NCBI RefSeq assembly: GCF_988242995.1
Contig: NZ_OZ547043.1
DNA: 64,000 nt
Strand: one strand, 5' to 3'
Translations under genes and position numbers: made by a program
Part shown: one piece after another, positions 1,436 through 33,762 of the stretch
How the letters are laid out: each line of letters begins with the position of its first letter
Numbering within the stretch: the first letter of the stretch is position 1
Notes under the pieces: generated by a model
Told to the model about the DNA's origin: nothing
Database searches by the model: none
Seen by the model: only the letters and a program-made list of their open reading frames with translations

Positions 1436-4400
1436 ATGGCAGAGCAAACCTCGCGTCTCGCAATAATTATTGATAGCACTGGAGCGAAAAATAATGCTGA
1501 CAATCTGACCTCCTCATTAGTCAAAATGACGCAGGCTGGGGAAACTGCTGCAAATAGCGCAGGGAAAGTGACTAAGGCAACAGAAGATGAGAAGAACGCG
1601 CTCGCAAAATTAAAAGCAGCTATTGATCCAGTTGGTGCCGCAATTGATACTGTCGGTCGACGCTATTCTGAATTAAAGAAATTTTTCGATAAAGGGCTTA
1701 TTGATAAAGAAGAATATGAATTTCTTGTCCGTAAACTTAATGAAACCACAGAGGAATTGAGCGGGGTTGCGCAAGCGCAGAGAGAAGCCGAGAAGGCCGG
1801 AAAACTTGCTGCCGCCCAGCAGGAAGCGCAGGCTCAGGCCTTTCAAAGAATGCTGGACAAGATCGACCCTCTGGCTGCGGCGCTAAGAAATCTTGAACAA
1901 CAGCATGATGAACTTAATGCTGCGTTTGCATCCGGGAAAATAAATGGTTCTCAGTTTGAGAATTATAGCCGAAAAATACAGGAAACACGGCGAGAGCTTA
2001 CCGGAGAGGCTCAGGCAGAGCGAGAAGCAGCAAAAGCGCATGATGAACAGGTTGTTGCTTTGCAACGTCTGATTGCTCAACTTGATCCTGTCGGAACTGC
2101 TTTTAATCGTCTGGTAGAACAACAGAAACAGCTCAATGAAGCAAAAGCTAAGGGGATGCTTTCTCCTGAAATGTATGAGGAGCTTTCTGGAAAACTTCGT
2201 GCTATGCGGAGTGAGCTTGAGGTTACTCAATCACAATTAAGCAAAACCGGAATGTCGGCAAAACAAACGGCTTTTGCTATGCGCATGTTGCCTGCACAAA
2301 TGACGGATATTGTTGTTGGGTTGTCCACTGGTCAGTCGCCATTTATGGTGTTAATGCAGCAGGGCGGCCAGCTAAAAGATATGTTCGGTGGGATTGGCCC
2401 GGCGATCAAAGGTGTAGGTTCTTATGTGCTGGGATTAATTAATCCTTTTACCCTGGCCGCAGCAGCCGTTGGGGTCTTAGGACTGGCTTACTATAAAGGC
2501 TCTCAGGAGCAGGACGAATTTAATAAATCTCTTATTCTTACCGGAAATCAGTTGGGGACAACCAGCGGGCAATTGGGCGATATAGCTCAACGTGCCGGGA
2601 ATGCGGCTGATTCGACAACTGGTGCTGCGGCGGCAGTATTAAATCAGCTTGTGCGTTCGGGAAAGGTAGCGAGCAGTTCGCTGGAGCAAGTGACGACAGC
2701 GATAGTAAAAACGAGCGAAGTAACAGGAATATCAACCGAACAACTGGTTAATGACTTCAATGAAATTGCAAAGGATCCTGTCAGTGCCATATCAAAACTT
2801 AATGATCAGTACCATTTTCTGACACTTGCGACTTATAACCAGATTAAGGCGCTACAGGATGAAGGGAACCAGCAGGAGGCCGCCCGCATTGCGACAGAAG
2901 AATACTCATCCTCAATGATCCAGCGCACCAACCAGATTAAAGAAAATCTTGGTTATCTTGAGACTGCATGGAAAGCTGTCGCAGACTCCGCAAAATGGGC
3001 ATGGGATTCCATGCTGGATATTGGCCGTGAGGCCTCCCTTGATCAAAAAATCTCAGATGTTCTCCGTCAAATTGATGAAATAGAAAAAAATACCCGACCC
3101 GGAGTTTTCGGGTTAGGTGGCATTGGAGATGGCGGAGCTCAAAATAAAAGGCTGGCACGATTAAAGCAGCAATTGGGCGTACTTCAAGCAGAAAAAATTG
3201 CTCAGGACGTACTAAATTCATCAATAAACGATTACAACAAGCGACAACAGGAAGGAATTGAACTCAGACAGAGAGCAGATGCCTTTTCAAAACAATATCA
3301 GACCCGGGAGCAGCAGAGAGCTAGTGAACTTGCAAAACTGGAAAAGCTAAAGAATCAGTATTCAAAGGAAGAATATAATAATCTTATCGCTCAAATAAAT
3401 GAGCGTTATAAAGATCCAAAGCAACCAAAGGCGAAAGGTTATTCTGATGATGCAGCCCAACGAATGATTGATCATCTGAATCAACAGAATGCGTTACTAA
3501 GTTCACAAGCTGAGTTGACCGTTAAATTAAGTTCCTCTGAACAGGAACTGGTTAAGTGGCGTCAGCGGATTGCCGACCTAGAGTCACGACCATCATCGAA
3601 ATTAACCCAGGATCAGAAATCGCTTCTCTTACACCGGGAAGAAATAACCGCGTTGATGGAGAAAAATGTTGCGATTGAAAAGAATAACAGGCTAATCAAG
3701 GAATCCGCCGAAATAACAGCATGGCGTGATTCATTGCAGGCTTCGATTGATAATCGTCAGCAGGGGTATGATATTCAGATTGCTGGTTATGGGGTTGGCG
3801 ATAAAAATCAGCAACGCCAGCAGGAATTACTGCGGATTGAACATGGATATAACAATCAGCGTCTGCAACTTGAACGTGACTATGCAGATAAATCCCGTGG
3901 AATGTCAGATCATGTTTTTCAAGAGAAAATGCAGGCTCTGAATGATGCTCTGGAACGGGAAAAAGAAATTGTCAGACAGAAAAACGAGCAGCTCGATATT
4001 CAGGCAGGAGACTGGGTTAGTGGTGCCTCCCAGGGATTCAATAACTGGCTGGATGACACTAAGGATATCAGTGAGCAGATAAAATCAACCACGACTCAGA
4101 TGTTTGATGGGATGACCGATGCGCTGGGTGATTTTGTCACGACAGGCAAGGCAAATTTTCGTTCTTTCGCTACTTCCGTGATTTCGGATCTTAGTCGAAT
4201 AGCATTAAAGGCTTCAATTACTGGGATTTTCGACAGCATTAGTAACAGTTCTTCTGGGGGGATTTTAGGAACTATCGGGAGTGCTATTAGTAAATTTATT
4301 CCGAATGCAAAGGGCGGTGTTTATGAGTCTCCGTCATTGAGCACGTATTCGAACGGTATTTATGATTCCCCGCAATTTTTTGCTTTTGCAAAAGGGGCTG

Positions 4401-4669
4401 GTGTTTTTGGTGAGGCTGGACCGGAAGCCATTATGCCATTAACACGAACTTCCGATGGTTCTCTTGGTGTCAGAGCTATTAATAGTAAAAGTGGTAATGG
4501 AGGCGGAGATATTACCTATGCCCCTGTATACCAAATCACTATTCAAAATGACGGCCAGAATGGAGAGATTGGCCCTCAGGCAATAAAAGCACTTATGGGG
4601 ATGGTTGATCAGCGGGTGCAGGGCACTCTGTTAAATATGCGACGTGATGGGGGAATGTTAAGTGGCTAA
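1436..4669 (+). CDS. Phage tail tape measure protein (lambda H-like)
   Basis: 1077-aa ORF, coiled-coil-rich N-terminal half and Gly-rich C-terminal part; sits between G/GT and M. Confidence 0.85.
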
Positions 4670-5000
4670 TACGGAAGAATTTCACTGGTTACCAGAGGAT
4701 GGAATGAAAACAGAAAATAAACCATCGATAAAAACTGTAAGATTTGGCGATGGTTATGAGCAACGAAGTCCAAATGGACTTAATCATTCTCTGCGCGTTT
4801 TCACCTGTGATTTCAAAGTTGAGGCGAATGAACGTGATTCATTTGAAAAATTTTTAGCCCGGCATGAAGGCTATAAATCTTTTTTTTGGCGCCCGCCGGG
4901 TATTAACAGAAAAATCAGAGTGGTGTGTCGAACGTGGTCAGCGACAGAACATATCACCTATACCGATTTTTCGTGTCAGTTTGACGAAGTGGTGATCTGA
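4662..5000 (+). CDS. Minor tail protein M
   Basis: 112 aa; [10 protein letters not shown]...KSFFWRPP motifs resemble lambda gpM as I recall it; overlaps the H stop. Confidence 0.85.
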
Positions 5001-5698
5001 TGCAGGACATACAACAGGAAACACTGAATGAATGCATTCGGGCGGAGCAGTCGGCCAGCGTGGTGCTCTGGGAAATCGACCTGACAGAGGTTGGCGGGGA
5101 TCGCTACTTTTTCTGCAATGAGCAGAATGAAAAAGGTGAGTCTGTCACCTGGCAGAGTCGGCAGTATCAGGCCTATCCCATTCAGGGGAGTGGATTTGAG
5201 ATGAACGGCAAAGGTGCCAGTGCAAGGCCAACACTGAAAGTATCTAACCTGCACGGCATGGTCACCGGGATGGTGGAGGATTTACAGAGTCTGGTCGGCG
5301 GAACAGTCGTCCGGCGTAAGGTCTACGCCCGTTTTCTGGATGCGGTGAACTTCGTCAACGGAAACAGAGACGCCGATCCGGAGCAGGAGGTGATCAGCCG
5401 CTGGCGCATTGAGCAGTGCAGCGAACTGAGCGCGGTGAGTGCCTCTTTTGTACTGTCCACGCCGACGGAAACGGACGGCGCTGTTTTTCCGGGACGTATC
5501 ATGCTGGCCAACACCTGCACCTGGACCTATCGCGGCGATGAGTGCGGTTATCACGGTCCGGCGGTCGCGGATGAATATGACCAGCCAACGTCCGATATCA
5601 CGAAGGATAAATGCAGCAAATGCCTGAGCGGTTGTAAGTTCCGCAATAACGTCGGCAACTTTGGCGGCTTCCTTTCCATTAACAAACTTTCGCAGTAA
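5000..5698 (+). CDS. Minor tail protein L
   Basis: 232 aa, lambda gpL-like with a Cys-rich C-terminus (CTWTYRGDECGY...CSKCLSGCKF); start overlaps the M stop. Confidence 0.85.
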   Translation: MQDIQQETLNECIRAEQSASVVLWEIDLTEVGGDRYFFCNEQNEKGESVTWQSRQYQAYPIQGSGFEMNGKGASARPTLKVSNLHGMVTGMVEDLQSLVGGTVVRRKVYARFLDAVNFVNGNRDADPEQEVISRWRIEQCSELSAVSASFVLSTPTETDGAVFPGRIMLANTCTWTYRGDECGYHGPAVADEYDQPTSDITKDKCSKCLSGCKFRNNVGNFGGFLSINKLSQ

Positions 5699-5702
5699 TC
5701 CC

Positions 5703-6446
5703 ATGACAGAGACAGAATCAGCGATTCTGGCGCACGCCCGGCGATGTGCGCCAGCGGAGTCGTGCGGCTTCGTGGTAAGCACGCCGGAGGGGGAAAGATA
5801 TTTCCCCTGCGTGAATATCTCCGGTGAGCCGGAGGCGTATTTCCGTATGTCGCCGGAAGACTGGCTGCAGGCAGAAATGCAGGGTGAGATTGTGGCGCTG
5901 GTCCACAGCCACCCCGGTGGTCTGCCCTGGCTGAGTGAGGCCGACCGGCGGCTGCAGGTGCAGAGTGATTTGCCGTGGTGGCTGGTCTGCCGGGGGGCGA
6001 TTCATAAGTTCCGCTGTGTGCCGCATCTCACCGGGCGGCGCTTTGAGCACGGGGTGACGGACTGTTACACGCTGTTCCGGGATGCTTATCATCTGGCGGG
6101 GATTGAGATGCCGGATTTTCATCGCGAGGATGACTGGTGGCGTCACGGTCAGAATCTCTATCTGGATAATCTGGAGGCCACAGGGCTGTATCAGGTGCCG
6201 TTGTCATCAGCACAACCGGGCGATGTGCTGCTGTGCTGTTTTGGTTCATCGGTGCCGAATCATGCCGCCATTTACTGTGGTGATGGCGAGCTGCTGCACC
6301 ATATTCCTGAACAACTGAGCAAACGAGAGAGGTATACCGACAAATGGCAGCGACGCACACACTCCCTCTGGCGTCACCGGGCATGGCGCGCATCTGCCTT
6401 TACGGGGATTTACAACGATTTGGTCGCCGCATCGACCTTCGTGTGA
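5703..6446 (+). CDS. Tail assembly protein K (NlpC/P60-JAB-like)
   Basis: Start chosen at the internal ATG (MTETESAILAHARRCAPAESCGF...), in frame with the track ORF 5661-6446 (track start is TTG); contains an HSHPGG motif. Confidence 0.8.
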   Translation: MTETESAILAHARRCAPAESCGFVVSTPEGERYFPCVNISGEPEAYFRMSPEDWLQAEMQGEIVALVHSHPGGLPWLSEADRRLQVQSDLPWWLVCRGAIHKFRCVPHLTGRRFEHGVTDCYTLFRDAYHLAGIEMPDFHREDDWWRHGQNLYLDNLEATGLYQVPLSSAQPGDVLLCCFGSSVPNHAAIYCGDGELLHHIPEQLSKRERYTDKWQRRTHSLWRHRAWRASAFTGIYNDLVAASTFV

Positions 6447-6985
6447 AAACGGGGGCTGAAGCCATCCGGGCGCTGGCCACACAGCTCCCGGCGTTTCGTC
6501 AGAAACTGAGCGACGGCTGGTATCAGGTACGGATTGCCGGGCGTGATACAGGTGAAACGGAATTATCAGCCCGTCTTAATGAACCGCTGGCAAATGGTGC
6601 TGTGATCCATATCGTGCCGCGTCTGGCAGGAGCCAAAAGTGGCGGTGTGTTTCAGGCTGTGCTGGGGGCGGCTGTTATGGCGGTTGCTATATGGATGCCG
6701 GGGGTAGGAATTATGGCGAGTAATCTGCTGTTTTCTCTCGGTGCCAGTATGACGCTTGGCGGTGTTGCACAGATGCTGGCCCCTAAACCCAAAACCCCCC
6801 GCACACAGACAACGGATAACGGCAAACAGAACACCTATTTTTCTTCACTGGATAATATGGTTGCCCAGGGCAATGTTCTGCCCGTTCTGTACGGTGAAAT
6901 GCGCGTGGGATCACGTGTGGTATCTCAGGAGATCAGCACAGCAGATGAAGGTGATGGTGGTCAGGTTGTGGTGATTGGTCGCTGA
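6344..6985 (+). CDS. Tail assembly protein I
   Basis: 213 aa starting MAATHTLPLASPGMARICLYGDLQRFGRR, lambda gpI-like; overlaps the end of K as in lambda. Confidence 0.85.
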   Translation: MAATHTLPLASPGMARICLYGDLQRFGRRIDLRVKTGAEAIRALATQLPAFRQKLSDGWYQVRIAGRDTGETELSARLNEPLANGAVIHIVPRLAGAKSGGVFQAVLGAAVMAVAIWMPGVGIMASNLLFSLGASMTLGGVAQMLAPKPKTPRTQTTDNGKQNTYFSSLDNMVAQGNVLPVLYGEMRVGSRVVSQEISTADEGDGGQVVVIGR

Positions 6986-7004
6986 TGAAAAACGTTTTAT
7001 GTGA

Positions 7005-7030
7005 AACCGCCTCCGGGCGGTTTTATCGTT
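7005..7030 (+). terminator. Terminator-like hairpin between I and J
   Basis: aaccgcc-tccg-ggcggtt stem-loop followed by a T-rich run, 16-40 nt upstream of the J start. Confidence 0.3.
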
Positions 7031-7045
7031 TATGGAGCATGACGA

Positions 7046-10000
7046 ATGGGTAAAGGCAGCAGTAAGGGGCATACCCCGCGCGAAGCGAAGGACAACCTGA
7101 AGTCCACGCAGCTGCTGAGTGTGATCGATGCCATCAGCGAAGGGCCGGTTGAAGGTCCGGTGGATGGATTAAAAAGCGTGCTGCTGAACAGTACGCCGGT
7201 GCTGGACAGTGAGGGGAATACCAATATATCCGGCGTCACGGTGGTGTTCCGGGCCGGTGAGCAGGAGCAGACTCCGCCGGAGGGATTTGAATCCTCCGGT
7301 TCCGAGACGGTGCTGGGTACGGAAGTGAAATATGACACGCCGATCACCCGCACCATCACGTCGGCAAACATCGACCGTCTGCGCTTTACCTTCGGTGTGC
7401 AGGCACTGGTGGAAACCACCTCAAAGGGGGACAGGAATCCATCGGAAGTCCGCCTGCTGGTTCAGATACAACGTAACGGTGGCTGGGTGACGGAAAAAGA
7501 CATCACCATTAAGGGTAAAACCACCTCGCAGTATCTGGCCTCAGTGGTGGTGGATAACCTGCCGCCGCGCCCGTTTAATATCCGGATGCGCAGGATGACG
7601 CCGGACAGCACCACAGACCAGCTGCAGAACAAAACGCTCTGGTCGTCATACACCGAAATCATCGATGTGAAACAGTGCTACCCGAACACGGCACTGGTCG
7701 GCGTGCAGGTGGACTCGGAGCAGTTCGGCAGCCAGCAGGTGAGCCGTAATTATCATCTGCGCGGGCGTATTCTGCAGGTGCCGTCGAACTATAACCCGCA
7801 GACGCGGCAATACAGCGGTATCTGGGACGGGACGTTTAAACCGGCATACAGCAACAACATGGCCTGGTGTCTGTGGGATATGCTGACCCATCCGCGCTAC
7901 GGCATGGGGAAGCGTCTCGGTGCGGCGGATGTGGACAAATGGGCGCTGTATGTCATCGGCCAGAATTGCGACCAGTCGGTGCCGGATGGCTTTGGTGGCA
8001 CGGAGCCTCGCATCACCTGTAATGCCTGGCTGACCACGCAGCGCAAGGCGTGGGATGTGCTCAGTGATTTCTGCTCGGCGATGCGCTGTATGCCGGTATG
8101 GAACGGGCAGACGCTGACGTTCGTGCAGGACCGGCCATCGGATAAGGTGTGGACCTATAACCGCAGTAATGTGGTGATGCCGGATGATGGCGCGCCGTTC
8201 CGCTACAGCTTCAGCGCCCTGAAGGACCGTCATAATGCCGTTGAGGTGAACTGGATTGACCCGAATAACGGCTGGGAGACGGCGACAGAGCTTGTGGAGG
8301 ACACGCAGGCCATTGCCCGTTACGGTCGTAACGTCACGAAGATGGATGCCTTTGGCTGTACCAGCCGGGGGCAGGCACACCGCGCCGGGCTGTGGCTGAT
8401 TAAAACAGAACTGCTGGAAACGCAGACCGTGGATTTCAGCGTCGGCGCAGAAGGGCTTCGCCATGTACCGGGTGATGTTATTGAAATCTGCGATGATGAC
8501 TATGCGGGGATCAGCATTGGCGGGCGCGTGCTGGCGGTGAACAGCCAGACCCGGACGCTGACGCTCGACCGTGAAATCACGCTGCCATCCTCCGGTACCA
8601 CGCTGATAAGCCTGGTTGACGGGCAGGGGAGTCCGGTCAGCGTGGAGGTTCAGTCCGTCACCGACGGCGTGAAGGTGAAAGTGAGTCGGGTTCCTGACGG
8701 CGTTGCCGGATACAGCGTGTGGGGGCTGAAGCTGCCGACGCTGCGCCAGCGCCTGTTCCGCTGTGTGAGTATCCGTGAGAACGATGACGGCACGTATGCC
8801 ATCACTGCCGTGCAGCATGTACCGGAAAAAGAAGCCATCGTGGATAACGGGGCGCACTTTGACGGCGACCAGAGCGGCACGGTGAATGGTGTCACGCCGC
8901 CAGCGGTGCAGCACCTGACCGCCGAAGTCACCGCAGACAGCGGGGAATACCAGGTGCTGGCGCGCTGGGATACGCCGAAGGTGGTGAAGGGCGTGAGCTT
9001 TATGCTTCGCCTGACCGTGGCAGCGGATGACGGCAGTGAGCGGCTGGTCAGCACGGCCCGGACGACGGAAACCACATACCGCTTCAGGCAGCTGGCTCTG
9101 GGAAATTACAGTCTGACAGTCCGGGCGGTAAATGCGTGGGGGCAGCAGGGCGATCCGGCGTCGGTATCGTTCCGGATTGCCGCACCGGCAGCGCCATCGC
9201 GGATTGAGCTGACGCCGGGCTATTTTCAGATAACCGCCACGCCGCATCTTGCGGTTTATGATCCGACGGTACAGTTTGAGTTCTGGTTCTCGGAAAATCG
9301 GATTGCGGATATCAGGCAGGTTGAAACCAGCGCGCGTTATCTTGGCACGGCGCTGTACTGGATAGCCGCCAGTATCAATATCAAACCGGGCCATGATTAT
9401 TATTTTTACGTTCGCAGTGTGAACACCGTCGGCAAATCGACATTCGTGGAGGCTGTCGGTCGGGCGAGCGATGATGCGGAAGGTTACCTGGATTTTTTCA
9501 AAGGCAAGATAACCGAATCTCATCTCGGCAAGGAGTTGCTGGAAAAAGTCGACCTGACGGAGGATAACGCCAGCAGACTGGATGAGTTTTCGAAAGAGTG
9601 GAAGGATGCCAACGATAAATGGAATGCCATGTGGGCTGTCAAAATTGAGCAGACCAAAGACGGCAAACATTATGTCGCGGGTATTGGCCTCAGCATGGAG
9701 GATACAGAGGAAGGCAAACTGAGTCAGTTTCTGGTTGCCGCCAATCGTATCGCGTTTATTGACCCGGCAAACGGGAATGAAACGCCGATGTTTGTGGCGC
9801 AGGGCAATCAGATATTCATGAACGAAGTGTTCCTGAAATATCTGACGGCTCCCACCATTACCAGCGGCGGTAATCCTCCGGCATTTTCCCTGACACCGGA
9901 CGGGCGGCTGACGGCGAAAAATGCCGATATCAGCGGTAACGTGAATGCGAACTCCGGGACGCTCAACAACGTCACGATTAACGAGAACTGCCGGGTTCTG

Positions 10001-10441
10001 GGAAAACTGTCCGCGAACCAGATTGAAGGCGATCTCGTTAAAACAGTGGGCAAAGCTTTCCCCCGTGACTCCCGGGCACCGGAGCGGTGGCCATCAGGGA
10101 CCATTACCGTCAGGGTTTATGACGATCAGCCGTTTGACCGGCAAATTGTTATTCCGGCGGTGGCATTCAGTGGCGCTAAGCATGAGAGAGAGCATACTGA
10201 TATTTACTCCTCATGCCGTCTGATAGTGCGGAAAAACGGTGCTGAAATTTATAACCGTACCGCGCTGGATAATACGCTGATTTACAGTGGCGTTATTGAT
10301 ATGCCTGCCGGTCACGGTCACATGACACTGGAGTTTTCGGTGTCAGCATGGCTGGTAAATGGCTGGTATCCCACAGCAAGTATCAGCGATTTGCTGGTTG
10401 TTGTGATGAAGAAAGCCACTGCAGGCATCACGATTAGCTGA
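7046..10441 (+). CDS. Host specificity protein J (central tail fibre / tip attachment protein)
   Basis: 1131-aa ORF; N-terminus [34 protein letters not shown] and most of the length are lambda J-like from memory; the last ~150 aa diverge. Confidence 0.9.
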
Positions 10442-10460
10442 ATTTTATAACCCAGATACG

Positions 10461-10487
10461 GGCACCAGAAATGGTGCCTTTTTTATT
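10461..10487 (+). terminator. Intrinsic terminator downstream of J
   Basis: ggcacc-agaaat-ggtgcc hairpin followed by TTTTTTATT. Confidence 0.6.
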
Positions 10488-10508
10488 GCAGAAAAGCGAG
10501 AGGTAATT

Positions 10509-11108
10509 ATGCGTAAATTATGTGCTGTTATTCTGTCCGCAGTAGTCTGGCTGGTTGCCGCTGGTACGCCAGCGAGCGCAGCAGAGCATCAGTCCACACT
10601 AAGCGCCGGGTATCTTCAGACCCATACTGATATGCCAGGCAGTGATGACCTGAAGGGCATTAACGTGAAATACCGTTATGAATTTACGGACATGCTGGGG
10701 CTGGTGACGTCATTCAGTTATGCCAATGCCAAAGATGAGCAAAGAACGCATTACAGCGATACCCGCTGGCATGAAGATTCAGTGCGTAACCGCTGGTTCA
10801 GCATGATGGCGGGGCCATCTGTACGCGTGAATGAATGGTTCAGTGCTTATGCGATGGCAGGTGTGGCTTACAGCCGTGTTTCGACGTTCTCCGGGGATTA
10901 TCTCCGCGTAACTGACAACAAGGGGAAAACGCACGATGTGCTGACCGGAAGTGATGACGATCGCCACAGCAACACGTCTCTGGCGTGGGGAGCTGGCGTG
11001 CAGTTTAACCCGACCGAATCCGTGGCCATTGATATTGCTTATGAAGGCTCCGGCAGTGGCGACTGGCGCACTGACGGTTTCATCGTGGGTGTCGGTTATA
11101 AGTTCTGA
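10509..11108 (+). CDS. lom: Lom-like outer membrane beta-barrel protein (Ail/Lom/PagC family)
   Basis: 199 aa with a signal peptide and a C-terminal aromatic residue (…VGVGYKF); lambda lom position between J and stf; bracketed by terminator hairpins. Confidence 0.8.
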   Translation: MRKLCAVILSAVVWLVAAGTPASAAEHQSTLSAGYLQTHTDMPGSDDLKGINVKYRYEFTDMLGLVTSFSYANAKDEQRTHYSDTRWHEDSVRNRWFSMMAGPSVRVNEWFSAYAMAGVAYSRVSTFSGDYLRVTDNKGKTHDVLTGSDDDRHSNTSLAWGAGVQFNPTESVAIDIAYEGSGSGDWRTDGFIVGVGYKF

Positions 11109-11134
11109 TTAGCCAGGTAACACAGTGTTATGAC

Positions 11135-11162
11135 AGCCCGCCGGTTCAGGCGGGCTTTTTTG
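11135..11162 (+). terminator. Intrinsic terminator downstream of lom
   Basis: agcccgcc-ggttcag-gcgggct hairpin followed by TTTTTTG. Confidence 0.6.
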
Positions 11163-11166
11163 TGGA

Positions 11167-13530
11167 GTGGATATGGCAGCAGTAAAAATCTCAGGTGTGC
11201 TGAAAGATGGTGCGGGAAAACCAATACAGAACTGCACTATTCAACTGAAGGCAAAGCGTAACAGCACCACGGTACTGGTGAACACGGTGGCCTCTGAAAA
11301 TCCGGATGAAGCCGGGCGTTACAGCATGGATGTTGAGTATGGTCAGTACAGCGTCACCCTGCTGGTTGAAGGTTTTCCGCCTTCACATGCCGGGACCATT
11401 ACCGTCTATGAAGGTTCCAGACCAGGTACGCTGAATGATTTTCTCGGTGCCATGACGGAAGATGATGTCATGCCGGAGGCATTGCGTCGTTTTGAGGCAA
11501 TGGTGGAAGAAGCGGCACGCAACGCCGAAGCCGCCTCTCAGAGCGCAGCAGCGGCAAAGAAATCCGAAACTGCAGCGGCATCATCGAAGAACGCGGCGAA
11601 AACCTCAGAAACAAATGCAGCTAACAGCGCACAGGCGGCAGCGTCCTCGCAGACTGCATCGGCAAACTCCGCGACAGCAGCCAAAAAATCAGAAACCAAC
11701 GCGAAAAATAGCGAGACAGCCGCAAAGACGAGCGAAACCAACGCAAAGTCCAGCCAGACGGCAGCGAAAACAAGCGAAACGAATGCCAAAGCCAGTGAAA
11801 CTGCGGCAAAAAACAGCCAGGTTGCAGCAGCCCAAAGCGAGAGCGCGGCAGCCGGTTCTGCGACTTCAGCAGCTGGATCAGCAACTGCTGCGGCTAACAG
11901 CCAGAAAGCTGCGAAGACGAGTGAAACTAACGCAAAGTCCAGCCAGACGGCAGCGAAGACCAGCGAAACGAATGCCAAAGCCAGCGAAACTGCGGCGAAA
12001 AACAGTCAGGATGCAGCAGCCCAAAGCGAGAGTGCTGCAGCTGGTTCTGCCACTGCATCAGCCAACAGTCAAAAAGCAGCAAAAACCAGTGAAACCAATG
12101 CAAAGACAAGCGAGACTGCAGCGGCGAACTCGGCGAAAGCATCCGCTGCAAGCCAGACCGCTGCAAAAGCAAGTGAAGACGCAGCCAGAGAGTATGCAAG
12201 CCAGGCAGCAGATCCGTATAAATATGTCTTACAGCCGCTGCCTGATGTGTGGATACCGTTTAACGATTCACTGGATATGATTACGGGCTTTTCGCCATCA
12301 TATAAAAAGATTGTTATTGGTGACGACGAAATAACGATGCCTGGCGACAAGATTGTTAAGTTTAAACGTGCATCGAAAGCAACCTATATTAACAAATCTG
12401 GTGTGTTGACAGAGGCTGCCATTGATGAGCCACGATTTGAACGTGATGGCCTGCTTATTGAGGGGCAAAGAACTAATCTTCTGCTTAATTCAACAAATCC
12501 ATCTAAATGGAATAAGTCAGGCAATCTGGAACTCACAGAAATATCCACGGATTCTTTTAATTTTACTTATGGGAGATTTACTGTAAAAGATACTCTTATT
12601 GGTCAGACAAGTGCTATTAATATCGTAACGATTTCTGGCAGTAAAGGGTTTGATGTCACAGGTGATGAAAAATATGTGACCATTTCATGCCGTGTAAGAA
12701 GTGATGTTGAAAATATAAGGTGTCGTTTAAGATTTGAACACCATGATGGTTATACTTACACTTTTTTGGGAGATGCTTACCTCAATTTATCAACACTTGT
12801 AATTGATAAAACTGGTACTGCTGCAGACCGTATTATTGCAAAGGCTGTAAAAGATGAGGTTACTGGTTGGATTTTCTATCAGGCTACAATTAATGCACTA
12901 GATACAGAGAGCATGATTGGTGCGATGGTTCAATACGCTCCTGTAAAAGGTTCAGGTACAGCATCTGGAGACTATCTGGATATCGCAACTCCACAAGTGG
13001 AAGGTGGATCAAGTGCTTCGTCATTTATTGTAACTGATATAACTGCAAGCACTCGCGCAAGCGATATGGTGACAGTCCCAATCAAGAATAACCTTTATAA
13101 TCTTCCTTTTACGGTTCTTTGTGAGGTACATAAGAACTGGTATAAAACGCCAAATGCAGCACCGCGTGTTTTTGATACCGGCGGTCATCAAACCGGAGCG
13201 GCTATTATTCTTGGCTTCGGTCGTTCAACAGATTACGACGGATTTCCTTATTGTGATATAGGTTTGGCTAACAGACGGGTAAACGAAAACGCATCGCTTG
13301 AAAAAATGGTTATGGGGATGCGTGTAAAGTCAGATCAGTCTACGTGCTCAGTAAGTAACGGGCGTATATCCAGCGAAAAGAAAGCCACATGGTCCTATAT
13401 TCAGAACTCCGCAATTATCCGTATTGGAGGCCAGACTACAGCCGGGTTGCGTCATTTATTTGGTCATGTCAGGAATTTCAGAATATGGCACAAGGCATTG
13501 ACTGATGCTCAGATGGGGGAGTCAATCTAA
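11167..13530 (+). CDS. stf: Side tail fibre protein (Stf-like) with a replaced C-terminal receptor-binding region
   Basis: 787 aa; N-terminal region with Ala/Ser/Thr-rich KTSETNAK-type repeats typical of Stf; the C-terminal ~400 aa are markedly AT-richer by eye and end in a motif (GHVRNFRIWHKALTDAQM) reminiscent of ConA/LamG-like lectin folds. Confidence 0.8.
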   Translation: MDMAAVKISGVLKDGAGKPIQNCTIQLKAKRNSTTVLVNTVASENPDEAGRYSMDVEYGQYSVTLLVEGFPPSHAGTITVYEGSRPGTLNDFLGAMTEDDVMPEALRRFEAMVEEAARNAEAASQSAAAAKKSETAAASSKNAAKTSETNAANSAQAAASSQTASANSATAAKKSETNAKNSETAAKTSETNAKSSQTAAKTSETNAKASETAAKNSQVAAAQSESAAAGSATSAAGSATAAANSQKAAKTSETNAKSSQTAAKTSETNAKASETAAKNSQDAAAQSESAAAGSATASANSQKAAKTSETNAKTSETAAANSAKASAASQTAAKASEDAAREYASQAADPYKYVLQPLPDVWIPFNDSLDMITGFSPSYKKIVIGDDEITMPGDKIVKFKRASKATYINKSGVLTEAAIDEPRFERDGLLIEGQRTNLLLNSTNPSKWNKSGNLELTEISTDSFNFTYGRFTVKDTLIGQTSAINIVTISGSKGFDVTGDEKYVTISCRVRSDVENIRCRLRFEHHDGYTYTFLGDAYLNLSTLVIDKTGTAADRIIAKAVKDEVTGWIFYQATINALDTESMIGAMVQYAPVKGSGTASGDYLDIATPQVEGGSSASSFIVTDITASTRASDMVTVPIKNNLYNLPFTVLCEVHKNWYKTPNAAPRVFDTGGHQTGAAIILGFGRSTDYDGFPYCDIGLANRRVNENASLEKMVMGMRVKSDQSTCSVSNGRISSEKKATWSYIQNSAIIRIGGQTTAGLRHLFGHVRNFRIWHKALTDAQMGESI

Positions 13531-13811
13531 TGAAAGATTTAACACTCAAATTTGCAGACAGGGCCGACTTTTCGGCCTTTATGGATAGCATTGGCTATTA
13601 TGATGACGAGTCGATGCAGGATGATATTCTTATTGACGTGATAGGTAACGTGTACAAAGAAACCGGAGAACTGACTGAAGATGGCGAACCGGTATGTGTT
13701 AAGGAAGACGGATATTTTGTAAACGTGCGCATCATTAATGATGCAAAAAAATCGTCAATATTCGATGAATACGCGGTTGTAGTTGAACATCAACTTCGTG
13801 GCTGGATGTGA
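13530..13811 (+). CDS. Hypothetical acidic 93-aa protein; possible tail-fibre chaperone
   Basis: ATG overlaps the stf stop (TAATG), suggesting translational coupling; no family recognised. Confidence 0.4.
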   Translation: MKDLTLKFADRADFSAFMDSIGYYDDESMQDDILIDVIGNVYKETGELTEDGEPVCVKEDGYFVNVRIINDAKKSSIFDEYAVVVEHQLRGWM

Positions 13812-14839: not shown

Positions 14840-14968
14840 GCTGTATATGCAACGGAGGAAGAAACCCCGTTGCTGGAAGCCTGGAAAAAGTATCGGATGC
14901 TGCTGAACCGTGTTGATACATCAACTGCACCTGATATTGAGTGGCCTACGAACCCTGTCAGGGAGTAA
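14840..14968 (+). pseudogene. tfa: 3' remnant of a tail fibre assembly gene (tfa), lacking start and N-terminal part
   Basis: Frame-2 translation gives ...[36 protein letters not shown], which matches the conserved C-terminus of lambda/P2-type Tfa proteins as I recall it; an in-frame stop lies immediately upstream (14837-14839). Confidence 0.55.
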
Positions 14969-15180
14969 TCATTGGGATTATGCCGCAGAAACGTTGTATG
15001 CAATAACGTTCTGCGGTTGGCTGATGCACTTTCGAGAGTGCATGTATTGAATTATTTCCAGCTATTATCGATTTTACGTATTTTTTGCATGAGAGAATTT
15101 GTACCTCCTCCCAACAACGACCTTCCATGACTTTCCGGACTTCTGTGGGCCAGCGGACGATGCTGCCCTCGGATGTTGTG

Positions 15181-16038
15181 CTAATTGGGTGATGACAAAT
15201 CCTGTGTATGGGTGTTTCCCTTTGTGCGTGCGTTGATGCTGGTAACGGTGAACGTCATGATGAACACAACCGCGAATAAGACGACAATCGTCGGAGCTGG
15301 TGCACTGTCGATAAAAAAGGACAACCAGACACCAGTCATTGACACTATTACCGATATGCCAATCGCCAGTAGGAGCGCAATATGAAAGCGTTGTGTCAGG
15401 AGTACCGCAATGGCGCCAGGCGCAATGAGCAGAGAAATGGAGAGAATGATACCTACCGCTTTCAGCGTCGCCACAATGGTCAGAGAGACCATGCACAGCA
15501 GCCCATAATGCAGACATCTCGTATGCAAACCGCTTACCTGCGCCTGTTGATAATCAAAGCTGAACAGCAAAAAATCCCGCCATTTTACGCTAATAACAAG
15601 TGTAACCAGCCCGGCAATAATCACCGTCTGGATTATATCGCCGATGGTTACCCCGAGCATGTCGCCGAAAAGAATATGGTCAAGATGTACGTCTGGTTTG
15701 ACTGCAATATACAAGATCAGACCTGCGGCAAACATGCCAGAAAAAACAATCCCCATCACTGTATCTTGCTTGATTCGGCTGTTGTCTTTCAGGTATCCCG
15801 TCGCCACCGCGCAGAATACTCCGGCGACGAATGCCCCTGTAGCCAGAGGTAACCCCAGAATCCAGGCAAGCACGATGCCAGGAAAAACCGCATGACTCAT
15901 CGCGTCACCCATCAGTGCCCAACCTTTCAGGACCAGAAAGACCGACAGCAGCGCACAGGGTATGGAAACTACCAGTGAAATCAGCAGTGCGTGACTCATA
16001 AAGGTGAACTGCAGTGGCTCCAGTAATAATGCCATCAT
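15181..16038 (-). CDS. sitD: Mn/Fe ABC transporter permease SitD
   Basis: 285-aa polytopic membrane protein of the ABC-3 (ZnuB/MntB) type; last gene of a four-gene operon with overlapping stop/start codons. Confidence 0.8.
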   Translation of the reverse strand: MMALLLEPLQFTFMSHALLISLVVSIPCALLSVFLVLKGWALMGDAMSHAVFPGIVLAWILGLPLATGAFVAGVFCAVATGYLKDNSRIKQDTVMGIVFSGMFAAGLILYIAVKPDVHLDHILFGDMLGVTIGDIIQTVIIAGLVTLVISVKWRDFLLFSFDYQQAQVSGLHTRCLHYGLLCMVSLTIVATLKAVGIILSISLLIAPGAIAVLLTQRFHIALLLAIGISVIVSMTGVWLSFFIDSAPAPTIVVLFAVVFIMTFTVTSINARTKGNTHTQDLSSPN

Positions 16039-16892
16039 GAGCGATCCTCCAGCGCTTTATGCGCACGCCGACGATTTGCCAAAAGCCCATGGGTGGGCGC
16101 AAATACAAATGCTAAAAGAAACAGCAGTGTCTGCGCCACCACGATGATTCCACCTGTCGCGCCGTCCAGAAAGTAACTGACCCACGCGCCGAGGAAACTG
16201 GTTACACTGCCAATAGTTACAGCAATTATGAGCAGGCGGGGAAAACGATCGGTTAACAACCATGCTGTTGCACCGGGAGTCACCACCAGACAGATCACCA
16301 GAAAGGCACCAACCGTTTGCAGCGCCGCAACGGTCGAAACCGACAGCAGGGTGAAGAAGAGGATTTTTAATCTGCCCGGATGCAATCCAATAGCACGAGC
16401 GTGATTCTCGTCGAAAAAGGTCACCATAAGATCTTTCCATTTGAAAAAAAGCACGATGATCGAGAGAATGCCAATGATAGTGAGTTGCAGGATATCCGCC
16501 GGATCGATTGCCAGAATATTGCCCAGGACGATGGTCTGAATGTTCACGGATGTCGGGTTCAATGACACCATAAACAGCCCCAGGCCAAAAAAGGAGGAGA
16601 AGATCAGGCCGATGATGGCATCTTCTTTTAAGCGAGTGCGTTGGTTAAGAAACAGCATGCTGCCCGCTGCCAGTCCGCCGGAAAAGAAGGCTCCCAGAGA
16701 AAACGGAAGCCCCAGCATATATGCCCCCGCAACACCCGGGACAATAGAGTGCGACAGCGCATCGCCAATCAGCGACCAGCCTTTTAGCATCAGATAGCAT
16801 GACAGGAAAGCGCAGAGACCGCCGACCATCGCCGAGACCCACATCGCATTGAGCATATATTCATAGCTGAAGGGTTCCAGTAGCACGTTCAT
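16035..16892 (-). CDS. sitC: Mn/Fe ABC transporter permease SitC
   Basis: 285-aa polytopic membrane protein; overlaps sitB and sitD by 4 nt each. Confidence 0.8.
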
Positions 16893-17716
16893 CTTGCTTC
16901 CCCCTGCACCGCTGACGGTCGATGTGCCACAAAAGGGTGTTCATCGTCAGTAATAATGCTTTCTTCCGAGCCGTTAAGTGTGACATGGCGCAGTACGCCG
17001 CTAAAAGCCAGCTCCAGGTTCTCGGCTGTAAAAGTGGTGTCTGTCGGCCCGCTTGCCAGGACGGTGCCTTTGACCATGACCGTATAATCGCAAAATGTCG
17101 TGACTGAGCCGAGATTGTGCGTTGAGACAAGCATCGTCTTGCCTTCCGCGCGTAACTCCCTCAACAGGCTGATGATTTTCGCTTCGGTTTTCACATCAAC
17201 GCCCGTAAAAGGTTCATCCAGCAGGATCACATCACCCTGCTGTGCAATCGCTCTCGCCAGAAAGACGCGTTTCTTTTGTCCACCGGAAAGCTCGCCGATT
17301 TGTCGATGGCGAAAATCCACCATATCGACACGTTCCAGCGCATCGGTGACAATCTGACGATCCCTCTTTTTGGCTATACGCAACATACCCATGTGCCCAT
17401 AGCGGCCCATCATCACCACATCTTCCACTAGTACAGGAAATGACCAGTCAACCTCTTCTGACTGAGGGACGTAGGCAACCAGGTTTTTCTGTAGCGCCTG
17501 TCGCGTGGGAATACCCAGAACAGATATCTTTCCGCTGGTCAGACGCACAAATCCCATAATCGCTTTAAACAACGTCGATTTTCCGGAACCGTTTACCCCA
17601 ACCAGAGCGGCAATAGATCCACTTGGTACTGTGAAGGATGCATCGCGCAGTGCTGTGTGCCCGTTACGCCAGGTGACAGTAACATCATTAACGACAATGC
17701 CCGCAGATTGCATCAT
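16889..17716 (-). CDS. sitB: Mn/Fe ABC transporter ATP-binding protein SitB
   Basis: Walker [10 protein letters not shown], signature LSGGQKKR, Walker B ILLDEP. Confidence 0.85.
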
Positions 17717-18630
17717 TATTTCTCCCTTTTCCCGGCTTTAATTCCCTGTACCAGCGTACTGGTAGTAACCTTCAGAAGGTCGATATACGTAGGTACCGGG
17801 CCGTTTTCTGTGCTCAGGGAATCGACATAGAGTACACCGCCGTAGTGCGCGCCGGTTTCACGCGCAACCTGACGCGCTGGTTTATCGGAAATCGTACTCT
17901 CGCTAAAGACTGCCGGGATATGATTTTTCTTCACCATATCAACAACCTTACGTACCTGCTGCGGCGTGCCTTGTTGATCGGCATTAATCGGCCACAGATA
18001 AAGCTCTTTTAGCCCCAAATCGCGTGCGAGATAAGAAAAAGCCCCTTCACTGGTGACCATCCATCGCTGATTCTCAGGGAGTTCAGCAATCTGCTTACGC
18101 AGGGGGGCAAGGGTTTGGGTAATCTTGGCTTTATAAGTATCGGCATTACGTTGGTAGGTTTGTGCATTTGCCGGATCGTATTTTATCAACGCATCACGAA
18201 TATTATCGACGTAAATCAGAGCATTATCTGGCGACATCCAGGCATGGGGGTTAGGTTTGCCCTCATAGGGGCCTTCAGTGATCCCTACTGGCGTCACACC
18301 CGAAGAGACAATTACTTCTGGAACCCCATTAAGATGCTGGTAAAAGCGTTGGAACCACAATTCCAGATTCATACCATTGGCGAGAATCAGTTGTGCCCCC
18401 TGCGCACGTTTAATATCGCCAGGGGTAGGCTGATACTCATGAATTTCTGCACCGGGCTTGGTTATGGATGAGACTTCTGCAGCATCTCCAGCCACGTTTT
18501 TGGCCATATCTGCGATGATGGTAAATGTTGTAATGACCTTGAATTTTTCAGTTGCACTCGCCTGAAATGCGATCGAGCAGGTGAGGGCGAGGCACCCCAA
18601 GAGCATGGTTACTTTTTTTATTGAGTACAT
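17716..18630 (-). CDS. sitA: Periplasmic metal-binding protein SitA (cluster A-I substrate-binding protein)
   Basis: 304 aa with a signal peptide; first gene of the operon; MntR and Fur boxes lie upstream. Confidence 0.85.
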
Positions 18631-19791: not shown

Positions 19792-20910
19792 TTAGAACTG
19801 ATAAACCAGACCTAAAGCGACAATATCATCGGTAGAGATGCCGTTGGCAGCGTAGAAGCTGTCATCTTCATCCAACAGGTTGATTTTATAGTCAACATAA
19901 GTGGACATGTTTTTATTGAAATAGTAAGTCGCGCCAACATCGGCGTATTTAACCAGATCTTTATCACCGTCGGTACCGACCAAATCCTTGCCTTTAGACA
20001 TCAGGAAAGAGACTGCCGGACGCAGCCCAAAATCGAACTGATACTGCGCAGTAACTTCAAAGTTCTGGGTTTTGTTGGCAATCGTATTTGTTGAATCACC
20101 GTAAGGTGTCATGTTACGCGTTTCAGAATACATGGTCGCCAGGTAGATATTGTTAGCATCGTATTTTGCCCCGGCAGTCCAGGCATCTGCCTTATCGCCT
20201 TTTGCGGTAGAGAATTCAGCCTGCTGGTTAGTGCGATCGGAACTGGTATAGGCGGCACCAAAACTCATGCCCATACCTAAGTCGTAGGTAGTAGAGATGC
20301 CAAGACCGTCGCCATTGGCGTTCTTAATGTTTCGATCACCACCGTTTGCGGTACCTTCTTGCTCATGGGTGACCTGGTTTTCATTCGCACCCTGGTACTG
20401 TAACGCAAAATTCAGACCATCAACCAGACCGAAGAAATCAGTATTACGATAGGTTGCTACGCCATTGGCTCGACCGGTCATATAGTTATCGGCTTTGGTA
20501 TAAGAGTCACCACCGAATTCCGGTAGCATATCGGTCCAGCCTTCGATGTCGTACATTACGCCATAATTACGACCATAGTCGAATGAACCCAGGTCACCAA
20601 ATTTCAGACCGGCAAAAGCAAGACGAGTCCAGGAATCACCTTTATCACCTTCAGAGCCATTAGCCTGCACGTTATATTCCCACTGGCCATACCCAACCAG
20701 TTGATCCGTGATTTGCGTTTCACCCTTAAAACCAAAACGCACATAAGTTTGATCACCATCACTATTGGTATTATCAGAAAAATAATGCAGGCCATCAACT
20801 TTGCCATACAGATCTAATTTGTTGCCGTCTTTATTATAAACTTCGGCTGCATGTGCAGCACCTGCGGCGAGCAGGGCAGGAATTAAAAGTGCCAGTACTT
20901 TGCTTTTCAT
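19792..20910 (-). CDS. ompN: Outer membrane porin OmpN (OmpC/OmpF family)
   Basis: 372 aa; signal peptide [21 protein letters not shown], porin-like body, C-terminal ...GLVYQF. Confidence 0.8.
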
Positions 20911-21138
20911 TGAATAAATCCTTTAGTTATTTTATTTGCCTTTTCATCCCCATTTTGGGGAGTGAAAGCATCCTAAAGGAGAAGTTCAGTTAGCCGATAA
21001 ATATCATTTGTTACGCCTTAAGTAAAACCTTAATCAAATAATTCTTCTGAAATGATAATAAGTCTGGTGAATGTATTGAAGATAATACATACAAAATAAA
21101 AATTATACTTTTAATTTGCTATACGTTATTCTGCGCGG

Positions 21139-21248
21139 GTTATATGCCTTTATTGTCACAGATTTTATTTTCTGTTGGGCCATTGCGTTGCTACTGATTT
21201 TCCAACAAATAATGAGACAAGCCCGAACAGTCGTTCGGGCTTTTTTTT
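21139..21248 (+). ncRNA. micC: MicC small regulatory RNA
   Basis: Starts GTTATATGCCTTTATTGTCACAGATTTTATTTTCTGTTGGGCCATTGC and ends in a GCCCGAAC-AGTC-GTTCGGGC hairpin plus T8; matches the MicC sequence I recall and its known location between ompN and ydbK. Confidence 0.8.
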
Positions 21249-21276
21249 AGAATTGGATAATCCTTATCCAGTGCAT

Positions 21277-33049: not shown

Positions 33050-33762
33050 AATAAATATCCTCCGGCATAGCCGGAGGTTTTTCAAATGCGCCTATAAGGC
33101 TCTCTTACCAGCCGCGCCCTAACAGGCGCACACGATCTGACATTTGCATCCAACTTCGTTACTTACGGCCCGTAAACGGGCTGCCCGGATAGGGAATCGA
33201 TAACTGCTCTCCCATTTTATCCTCTTCAAGCTGGTGCTTTATGTAATCCTGTATCTTCGCCGTGTTCTTACCCACTGTATCGACGTAGTACCCTCTGCAC
33301 CAGAACTCCCTGTTCCTGTATTTGAATTTCAAATCACCAAACTGCTCGTAAAGCATCAGACTGCTTTTCCCTTTCAGATATCCCATAAACCCGGATACGC
33401 TCATTTTGGGCGGGATCTCCACAAGCATATGGATATGATCTGCACAGCATTCAGCTTCCAGAATCCGTACGCTTTTCCACTCACACAGCTTTCTCAAAAT
33501 ACTGCCTATTGCTCTACGCTTCTCTCTGTAGAACACCTGTCTTCGGTATTTTGGCGCAAAAACTATGTGATATTTACAGTTCCATCGGGTGTGCGCTAAG
33601 CTCTTTTCGTTCCCCATTGGGACCCCCTTTTGATTTCTTGTTTGACACTTGCAGTTGCCAGACCGCAAAGTGTTTTAACAAATCAAAAGGGGTTTTAATA
33701 ACTGGCTCAAAGCTGAAAGCTTTCCGGAACCCCCAGCCTAGCTGGGGGTTTTCTGTGCACAA
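33050..33762 (-). mobile_element. IS200-type insertion sequence (IS200/IS605 family), copy A
   Basis: ~713-bp unit whose reverse complement matches 62558-63270 along its whole length by eye; encodes a 152-aa HuH Y1 transposase; sits between convergent feaB and tynA. Confidence 0.8.
33159..33617 (-). CDS. tnpA: IS200/IS605-family transposase TnpA (Y1 HuH)
   Basis: 152 aa from MGNEKSLAHTRWNCKYHIVFAPKYRRQVFY; the track ORF has an upstream extension. Confidence 0.85.
   Translation of the reverse strand: MGNEKSLAHTRWNCKYHIVFAPKYRRQVFYREKRRAIGSILRKLCEWKSVRILEAECCADHIHMLVEIPPKMSVSGFMGYLKGKSSLMLYEQFGDLKFKYRNREFWCRGYYVDTVGKNTAKIQDYIKHQLEEDKMGEQLSIPYPGSPFTGRK

Follow-up and report, generated by a model that had tools for sequence, protein, structure and literature searches.

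Which outer membrane protein does a J protein address when its body is that of lambda but its C-terminal end is not? The question is raised by gene J in the window, by which we mean the whole stretch of 64,000 nucleotides of contig NZ_OZ547043.1 (assembly GCF_988242995.1) that was analysed. The prophage is of the lambda-like siphovirus kind, and J would be its trimeric protein of tail tip and central fibre; the last ~157 residues of J would form a swappable module made up of the end of the fibre shaft and an Ig-like receptor-binding domain. With a probability of roughly 0.8, this J combines a lambda-type body with a recombined tip of the VT1-Sakai/2G7b/1A2 type, which most likely docks on OmpC rather than on LamB. 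The gene and its parts are located as follows.

7046–10441, plus strand: gene J (tip attachment protein / central tail fibre), intact open reading frame of 1131 aa
7046–9967, plus strand: lambda-like J body, aa 1–974, 96.8% amino acid identity to lambda J
9940–9990: mosaic junction from lambda-like to VT1-Sakai/2G7b-like sequence, located by identity profiles
9968–10438, plus strand: divergent C-terminal module, aa 975–1131 (fibre shaft end and Ig-like receptor-binding domain)
10046–10438, plus strand: Ig_GpJ_C receptor-binding domain (PF12421), aa 1001–1131, found with Pfam

The reading frame runs uninterrupted through 1131 codons, and its stop codon ends at 10441. Residues 1–1130 align collinearly with residues 1–1131 of lambda J (PDB 8iyk_J; 2317 bits), with 89.4% identity over the 1131 columns of the whole-protein alignment (BLASTP). 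FNIII-A_GpJ, Phage-tail_3, Ig_J, Ig_J_second, Phage_Tail_Tip and Ig_GpJ_C all scored above their Pfam gathering thresholds, and the domain order is that expected of a lambda-type J, namely hub, two FNIII/Ig domains, helical shaft with beta-prism fibre, and C-terminal Ig-like receptor-binding domain. The initial annotation had stated that most of J matches lambda gpJ, and this was borne out for residues 1–974, in which a global alignment to lambda J (NC_001416) revealed 31 substitutions; at the codon level, 102 synonymous and 31 non-synonymous differences were counted. The body lies inside a lambda-homologous block (4978–9978, nucleotide identity 92.7% by blastn). Given the 97% identity of the body to the solved lambda trimer, J would presumably also close the tail tip as a trimer. 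Two small open reading frames overlap J (9808–10104 on the minus strand and 9945–10223 on the plus strand); as genes they are without support, and they were taken as chance open reading frames inside J.

The high identity to lambda ends abruptly, with a fall at the nucleotide level from ~93–97% to ~55–62% at roughly 9940–9980. Nucleotide identity per 100 nucleotides is 87–100% up to 9945 and 54–62% beyond, mismatches become dense from ~9966, and the blastn match to lambda stops at 9978. This drop coincides with the onset of ~95–99% nucleotide identity to the J gene of VT1-Sakai, which climbs to that level from ~9896; the VT1-Sakai profile, with 63–90% identity in the body and 95–99% in the tail, is the reverse of the lambda profile. 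A homology block shared with VT1-Sakai extends from 9628 to 11528 (blastn) and covers the J tip and the adjacent lom gene. At the protein level, 67–68 of the 157 residues of the tail (975–1131) are identical to lambda J in a global alignment with one indel, that is ~43%, and the step from 97% to 43% within one open reading frame is far beyond chance. The GC content is 51.2% in the divergent tail versus 57.9% in the J body. The junction directly follows a conserved stretch of 10 residues and lies near lambda amino acid 964, the fusion point used for gpJ chimeras with natural variants (Brodel et al., Nature 2024; PMC11338833). The lambda-type body and the tip allele were probably joined by homologous recombination within conserved shaft sequence at about aa 955–975. 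The initial annotation had set the start of the divergence at 9990, a position within codon C982, and the peptide it quoted begins at N975 (nucleotide 9968).

That annotation also held that the C-terminal ~150 residues do not resemble the end of lambda J. This stands with respect to identity, which is low, but not with respect to domain and fold. PF12421 was matched with an E value of 6.3e-37 (127 bits; cut-off 26.2), and an AlphaFold (AF2) monomer model of the tip folds into a beta-sandwich with a pLDDT of 80.5. Foldseek listed 9wcb, 9wca, 8xck and 8xcj as top matches to this model. The best was 9wcb_F with 60% identity and a TM score of 0.78, an entry entitled 'Open state of A8 gpJ 713 central tail fiber with OmpC G17 from E. 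coli EDL933', followed by the lambda receptor-binding domain structures 8xck and 8xcj (TM 0.80). The J tail is a diverged homologue of the lambda tip, not an unrelated sequence. High identity of residues ~980–1131 to lambda J, named by the initial annotation as evidence against a change of receptor, was not found (41–43%).

The differences from lambda are unevenly distributed. Conserved and variable loops alternate along the tip, an arrangement in line with the four bottom loops (L1–L4) by which lambda J binds its receptor (PMC11101478). The variable loops comprise aa 1004–1017, 1046–1053, 1074–1076 and 1104–1115; all four differ from those of lambda, and in three of them the identities amount to 0/8, 0/3 and 3/12. 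Framework motifs common to the lambda and window tips are WPSGT, DDxPFDRQIV, NG and DMPAGxG. The beta-sandwich framework is retained together with the loops DDQPFD, NG and DMPAGxG, which probably face the fibre, and the four intervening loops are rewritten and probably face the receptor; this orientation is suggested by the monomer model and by conservation. High identity to lambda J ~975–1132 including L1–L4, as expected of a LamB-specific allele, is lacking in the window tip.

Close relatives of the tip occur in prophages of E. coli O157:H7 and in Escherichia phage 2G7b. The J tail of VT1-Sakai (Sp15) shares 155 of 157 residues with the window tail, the differences being R1048K and G1106N, and 10 synonymous versus 2 non-synonymous codon differences point to purifying selection and a conserved function. 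Phage 2G7b (Lambda_2G7b, LR595866 / NC_049954) has the same tail protein sequence (100% identity), encoded by DNA that differs at one nucleotide; the 18 residue differences between the two whole J proteins all fall in the body (nucleotide identity 96.8%), and lom and stf are ordered as in the window. The two differ in the tape-measure gene, which has lambda length in 2G7b (2562 nt), whereas H of the window encodes 1077 aa and departs from lambda upstream of 4978. The mosaic of 2G7b J has been published, with >97% identity in the N-terminal 982 aa and 40–60% in the C-terminal ~150 (Andrews & Fields, bioRxiv 10.1101/2020.06.25.171868). Altogether, the tip is 98.7% identical to VT1-Sakai, 100% to 2G7b, ~60% to A8, 43% to lambda and 42–45% to phage 434, and more than 3000 records of complete E. 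coli genomes contain DNA at least 90% identical to the J tail.

A link to a receptor is provided by gpJ 1A2, an engineered lambda chimera (Brodel et al., Nature 2024; PMC11338833) whose tip is the C-terminal allele of the VT1-Sakai (Sp15) and PPompW prophage J proteins of E. coli O157:H7. Its sequence is available as recoded DNA in the supplement of that study and was compared by frameshift-tolerant alignment. The machine-read 1A2 tail equals the Sakai allele at 146/157 codons, i.e. at every cleanly readable one, and the remaining 11 fall at text-extraction errors. Of the window tail, 144/157 codons are identical to 1A2, with R1048K and G1106N as the sole clean differences, and the near-identity in tip sequence that marks the 1A2/VT1-Sakai allele is thus present in the window. 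Both proteins join a lambda-type body near aa 964–975 to the same class of tip; the window J is a natural mosaic, whereas 1A2 is engineered, and it is on 1A2 that the use of OmpC was demonstrated. In the same study, DNA delivery by 1A2 was 93% in strain s14269 (MG1655 carrying EDL933 OmpC) at an MOI of 26 and 96% with TN03 OmpC in an MG1655 derivative at an MOI of 125, and 2% in MG1655 lacking lamB and ompC and supplied with plasmid-borne K-12 OmpC at an MOI of 39 (PMC11338833). Judged by tip sequence, the probable receptor of the window J is OmpC in EDL933-like variants, and K-12 OmpC is probably not used. The expectation of the initial annotation that the receptor is a protein other than LamB is supported by the 155/157 identity to VT1-Sakai, the allele of OmpC-using 1A2. 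A literature search for receptor experiments on natural phages with this tip (2G7b, PhiR49/30/26/63, Stx-phage J with OmpC) found none.

In A8 gpJ (PDB 9wca, closed; 9wcb, open on EDL933 OmpC), as proposed for the window J, a lambda body ends in a tip that binds OmpC, and A8 gpJ is the best match of solved structure both by sequence (271 bits versus 203 for lambda) and by fold. For the class to which the window tip belongs, a structure in complex with OmpC has been solved (A8 gpJ–EDL933 OmpC, PDB 9wcb). However, the A8 tip is only ~60% identical, its first variable loop being shorter by 4 residues and its second longer by 5, so that the close identity and equal loop lengths of an A8-type allele are not found despite the common fold. 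K-12 OmpC is accepted by A8 but not by 1A2 (PMC11338833). Given its near-identity to 1A2, the window tip would most likely dock on OmpC, a trimeric porin, at its extracellular mouth, and docking would trigger opening of the tail, as has been shown structurally for lambda–LamB and A8–OmpC. The J protein of phage 434, reportedly OmpC-specific (PMC11101478), shares the domain family, but its tip forms a separate allele class; OmpC use in common would therefore not be explained by close relatedness.

HK022, phi80 and N15 have FhuA-specific lambdoid tail tips. Their J proteins are homologous to the window J over the N-terminal ~700–860 aa alone (31–35%), and a BLASTP comparison of J residues 975–1131 with these three yielded no match better than E 0.38; a FhuA-type tip was dismissed for want of detectable similarity. 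Gifsy-1 J, which binds OmpC, OmpX and BtuB, was set aside as a comparator, as it was absent among the tblastn matches listed and its C-terminus is reportedly just 18% identical to that of lambda. A 2026 receptor-prediction preprint was not used as a guide either, since it covers GpJ of Drexlerviridae and explicitly leaves out lambda J.

Other readings of the tip have to be weighed against OmpC docking. It might be a diverged allele that still binds LamB, which we regard as hardly credible. The lambda tip has the same Pfam domain and fold (PDB 8xcj with LamB; 8xck closed; TM 0.80), and LamB, like OmpC, is a trimeric beta-barrel porin, but the variable loops of the two tips are essentially unrelated, and the near-identical 1A2 tip functions in a lamB-deleted strain, where delivery is switched on or off by the OmpC variant (PMC11338833). 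LamB binding has already been largely refuted by these 1A2 data. A relic in a defective prophage is very improbable as well; J would then be without a current receptor role, and its divergence would be silent on present host range. The window holds the tail-gene end of the prophage alone, with a remnant for tail-fibre assembly at 14848–15018, and in VT1-Sakai a mutation has truncated J. The locus is the Rac-like site, at which defective prophages often occur. Yet J is open over its full length, most codon differences from its relatives are synonymous, and none of the neighbours H, M, L, K, I, lom and stf is interrupted, each matching its Pfam family.

The two residues that separate the window tip from 1A2 bear on a further reading.

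10187–10189, plus strand: codon R1048 (K in VT1-Sakai and 1A2), in variable loop aa 1046–1053
10361–10363, plus strand: codon G1106 (N in VT1-Sakai and 1A2, D/N in other members), in variable loop aa 1104–1115

R1048 lies in the second and G1106 in the fourth variable loop, both among the least conserved, and the two positions are polymorphic (R/K and G/N/D) among close relatives in the allele class. The tip might therefore act on OmpC-family porins with a variant spectrum unlike that of 1A2 (e.g. K-12-type OmpC, OmpF or OmpN). In lambda J, a change of receptor from LamB to OmpF is known to result from point mutations (cited in PMC11101478), and A8 and 1A2, of classes ~60% identical to each other, already differ in the set of variants accepted out of 23 OmpC variants (PMC11338833). 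Such an altered spectrum is nevertheless unlikely with differences at only 2/157 residues and a synonymous to non-synonymous ratio indicative of conserved function. As the two substitutions sit in variable, presumably receptor-facing loops, they could shift the spectrum of OmpC variants and less likely the receptor itself; OmpC docking, assigned to the R1048/G1106 allele because its tip is near-identical to 1A2, would be left in place. More speculatively, the two sites may represent a recurrent polymorphism that tunes the usable OmpC variants or OmpC-like porins, a minimal natural host-range switch. If so, the host spectrum of the window allele should be measurably unlike that of 1A2.

The mosaic J shows that receptor tips pass as cassettes among lambdoid prophages. 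The tip variant is common and already known: the 2G7b mosaic has been published, O157 prophages carry near-identical tips, and 1A2 is used in engineered delivery particles. Its practical value is limited to annotation, as 'J, OmpC-type receptor-binding domain, 1A2/VT1-Sakai class'. Downstream of J, the following features were found.

10460–10489, plus strand: terminator-like hairpin with T-run just 3' of the J stop, found by consensus scan
10509–11108, plus strand: lom (Ail/Lom outer-membrane protein), Pfam Ail_Lom, E 3e-126
11167–13530, plus strand: side tail fibre gene, 787 aa, Pfam phage_tail_N, E 1e-66

The gene order H-M-L-K-I-J-lom-stf is evident from the Pfam families of the neighbours and from synteny with lambda, 2G7b and VT1-Sakai, and lom and the J tip belong to one VT1-Sakai-like block. 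In related genomes the side tail fibre gene carries the annotation of a prophage tail fibre, and it is a second host-range determinant beside the J tip. Together, tip and side fibres would set which strains can be infected on induction, namely those with suitable OmpC variants rather than LamB. The hairpin, with an 8-bp stem containing five GC pairs and followed by TTTTTATTGC, is a pattern match only.

The open reading frame that ends in the divergent stretch belongs to a lambda-like siphovirus prophage and is its J gene, because its product is collinear with the lambda tip attachment protein J over the whole length (PDB 8iyk_J, residues 1-1131, 2317 bits), carries the complete J Pfam domain set (FNIII-A_GpJ, Phage-tail_3, Ig_J, Ig_J_second, Phage_Tail_Tip, Ig_GpJ_C) and is encoded downstream of H (the tape-measure gene), M, L, K and I and upstream of lom and a side tail fibre gene.

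7046-10441, + strand, J open reading frame, 1131 codons plus stop

The initial annotation had described a lambda-like body with a divergent end of about 150 residues, and a protein alignment with lambda J (NC_001416) bore out both parts. Residues 1-974, the body, differ by 31 substitutions (96.8% identity), whereas in residues 975-1131, the tail, 67 of 157 match (about 43%) and a single-residue indel occurs, a sharp step that is not noise. High identity to lambda J was looked for in residues ~980-1131, and from C982 onward 41% was found. The divergent part lies at the 3' end of the gene: the 29-residue peptide quoted in that annotation starts at N975 (nucleotide 9968), its start coordinate 9990 falls within codon C982, and 10441 is the final base of the TGA stop. 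In 100-nt bins, nucleotide identity to lambda is 87-100% until 9945 and 54-62% from there to the gene end; the lambda blastn match spans 4978 (the start of L) to 9978 and then ends. GC content is 57.9% in the body versus 51.2% in the tail.

The claim that this end does not resemble that of lambda J stood as to divergence and failed as to unrelatedness. The tail matches PF12421 (Tip attachment protein J, C-terminal receptor binding domain; residues 1001-1131, E 6.3e-37) and aligns with lambda J residues 935-1131 (E 1e-58), and an AlphaFold2 model of residues 975-1131 is a nine-strand beta-sandwich (mean pLDDT 80.5) that superposes on the solved lambda receptor-binding domain (8xck, 8xcj; TM 0.80). 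The tail is thus the same domain in a diverged allelic form. Among solved structures, a PDB search ranks A8 gpJ 713 first, ahead of lambda J (271 versus 203 bits); A8 is an engineered lambda gpJ chimera with a swapped tip, and the model also superposes on it (9wca, 9wcb; TM 0.77-0.78).

When 50,697 phage records were searched by tblastn with the 157-residue tail, 243 matched.

Tail identity of phages and tip types in the tblastn search
Escherichia phage 2G7b: 100%
VT1-Sakai, PPompW prophages and phage vB_EcoS-783R2: 98.7%
many long-tailed Stx1a and Stx2a phages: 98.1%
band including A8-like tips: 60-64%
lambda-type tips: 43%
434-type tips: about 42%

Nucleotide identity to VT1-Sakai J is the reverse of the lambda profile, with 63-90% in the body, then 95-99% beyond about 9896, and the VT1-Sakai-like block (9628-11528) runs through lom into the start of stf. 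Judged by these mirror-image profiles and by the extent of the block, the J gene is a naturally occurring mosaic: its body, like L, K and I, is of lambda type, and its tip, like lom, of VT1-Sakai/2G7b type. The junction falls at about residues 965-975, directly after a conserved 10-residue stretch. Between the window and VT1-Sakai tails there are 13 nucleotide differences, giving ten synonymous and only two non-synonymous codon differences (R1048K and G1106N), which reads as a signature of maintained function. VT1-Sakai J itself (3002-6474 of that record) is annotated as two truncated coding sequences, split by mutation; the best-known natural carrier of the tip allele matching chimera 1A2 is thus J-defective.

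The initial annotation had further proposed a receptor other than LamB, and this interpretation is supported by a near-identical tip that delivers OmpC-dependently without lamB. A8 and a second chimera, 1A2, were made by fusing C-terminal portions of natural gpJ variants to lambda gpJ, and were screened on a lamB-deleted recipient and then on a lamB- and ompC-deleted strain with plasmid-borne OmpC variants (Brodel et al., Nature 2024, PMC11338833). The 1A2 gene is given in the supplement as recoded DNA, and its machine-read text, with lost and added bases, was compared by frameshift-tolerant alignment. Cleanly readable were 146 of the 157 tail codons, and all of these agree with VT1-Sakai; the window tail agrees at 144 of 157, the clean differences being R1048K and G1106N only, exactly the VT1-Sakai residues. 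The remaining 11 codons fall at text-extraction errors, including an internal stop. On this codon comparison, 1A2 carries the VT1-Sakai allele, two residues from the window tip.

Delivery by 1A2 reached about 2% (MOI 39) on the lamB/ompC-deleted strain with K-12 OmpC, 5% (MOI 50) on wild-type MG1655, 93% (MOI 26) and 99% (MOI 78) on s14269, an MG1655 derivative with EDL933 OmpC, and 96% (MOI 125) with TN03 OmpC; wild-type lambda particles had no success on lamB/ompC-deleted strains (PMC11338833). Since exchanging the OmpC variant in the MG1655 background (plasmid-complemented strains without lamB) switched 1A2 delivery on or off (PMC11338833), OmpC is the receptor for the 1A2 tip. One A8 entry, 9wcb, is titled 'Open state of A8 gpJ 713 central tail fiber with OmpC G17 from E. 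coli EDL933'. By its near-identity to 1A2, OmpC is probably the receptor of the window tip too, at a probability of no more than about 0.8, mainly because of the R1048 and G1106 differences from 1A2.

The lambda domain is Ig-like, and its four bottom loops L1-L4 enter the lumen of the LamB trimer on its extracellular side; on binding, the three domains spread apart, and the motion passes up the fibre and opens the tail (Ge et al., PMC11101478). In the window tip model, conserved and variable inter-strand loops alternate.

Inter-strand loops of the tip model, identity to lambda
conserved: DDQPFD 5/6; NG 2/2; PAGHG 4/5
variable: residues 1004-1017 7/14; 1046-1053 0/8; 1074-1076 0/3; 1104-1115 3/12

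From the monomer model and this conservation, the four variable loops may be the counterparts of L1-L4 and bear the specificity change, and the conserved face may couple to the shaft; from such a division it would follow that the cassette is exchangeable without disturbing the triggering machinery. R1048 and G1106 both sit in variable loops, and both sites are polymorphic among close relatives (1048 R/K; 1106 G/N/D). That they tune the range of OmpC variants accepted is the one mildly novel reading, and not a likely one.

The J proteins of the FhuA users HK022, phi80 and N15 are homologous to the window J only over the N-terminal 700-860 residues (31-35% identity); against them the tip itself gave no hit better than E 0.38. 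All characterised members of the Ig_GpJ_C class compared here bind a trimeric porin (LamB or OmpC). As phage 434 J is reported to be OmpC-specific (PMC11101478) yet is only 42-45% identical to the window tip, the OmpC users of this domain fall into two or three distant allele classes at the least.

Of 5426 complete E. coli genomes, 3371 carry matches to the 474-nt tail DNA (median two copies each), and the best match is at least 99% identical in 205 records, 95-99% in 1885 and 90-95% in 1160. Identical tail DNA occurs in at least 13 records, with isolates from human, gull, poultry and mollusc, and thousands of sequences fall into the protein clusters that represent this allele. A J with more than 97% lambda identity over the N-terminal 982 residues and 40-60% over the C-terminal ~150 was described for lambda_2G7b (Andrews & Fields, bioRxiv 10.1101/2020.06.25.171868), and the tip is already in use as an OmpC-targeting module. 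The mosaic finding is therefore correct and its interpretation supported, but already known.

The window includes only the tail-gene end of the prophage, whose tail genes stop near 15,000 and are followed by sitABCD, uspF, ompN, MicC, nifJ/ydbK, hslJ, ldhA and ydbH; on the K-12 map this is where the Rac prophage lies in the E. coli chromosome.

1436-4669, + strand, H tape-measure protein, 1077 aa
11167-14829, + strand, side tail fibre cluster, four ORFs
15181-18630, - strand, sitABCD iron/manganese ABC transporter operon
19792-20910, - strand, ompN porin gene, adjoining MicC
21136-21256, + strand, MicC sRNA (Rfam RF00121, 124 bits)
33627-33750, - strand, and 62570-62693, + strand, Rfam STnc490 matches, 144.6 bits each
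50121-56612, + strand, BigA/YdbA ORF, 2163 aa

H is 1077 aa long and its lambda counterpart 853 aa (gene 2562 nt), which predicts a longer tail for this virion. The H DNA is not lambda-like, lambda homology beginning only at 4978, and a second mosaic boundary lies between M and L. The side tail fibre cluster consists of ORFs of 787, 93, 234 and 97 aa, the first a fibre with a prophage tail-fibre N-terminal domain and the third carrying a Peptidase_S74 intramolecular chaperone domain; its stf gene is only about 81% identical in nucleotides to that of strain JNEC-KY178, and the cluster represents a second, independent host-range module. Downstream of these non-lambda genes, a 171-nt stretch (14848-15018) matches, at 90% identity, the lambda tfa 3' end together with the sequence just past it (lambda positions 13438-13609); in RefSeq the corresponding position is annotated with a partial gene for tail fibre assembly. 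sitABCD adjoins the tail-fibre end, an arrangement also present in other E. coli genomes, and has the look of cargo at the border of the prophage.

MicC, which is known to repress OmpC, is encoded about 11 kb away from the J tip with its predicted OmpC use, probably a coincidence of locus. The porin gene homologous to ompN is labelled 'ompC' in one RefSeq genome. Each STnc490 match overlaps a 169-aa ORF (33159-33668, - strand; 62652-63161, + strand), and the pairs look like two IS200-type element copies in opposite orientation. The BigA/YdbA frame, with BigA/YdbA N-terminal barrel and BigA beta-sandwich domains, is intact; in K-12, ydbA is an interrupted pseudogene.
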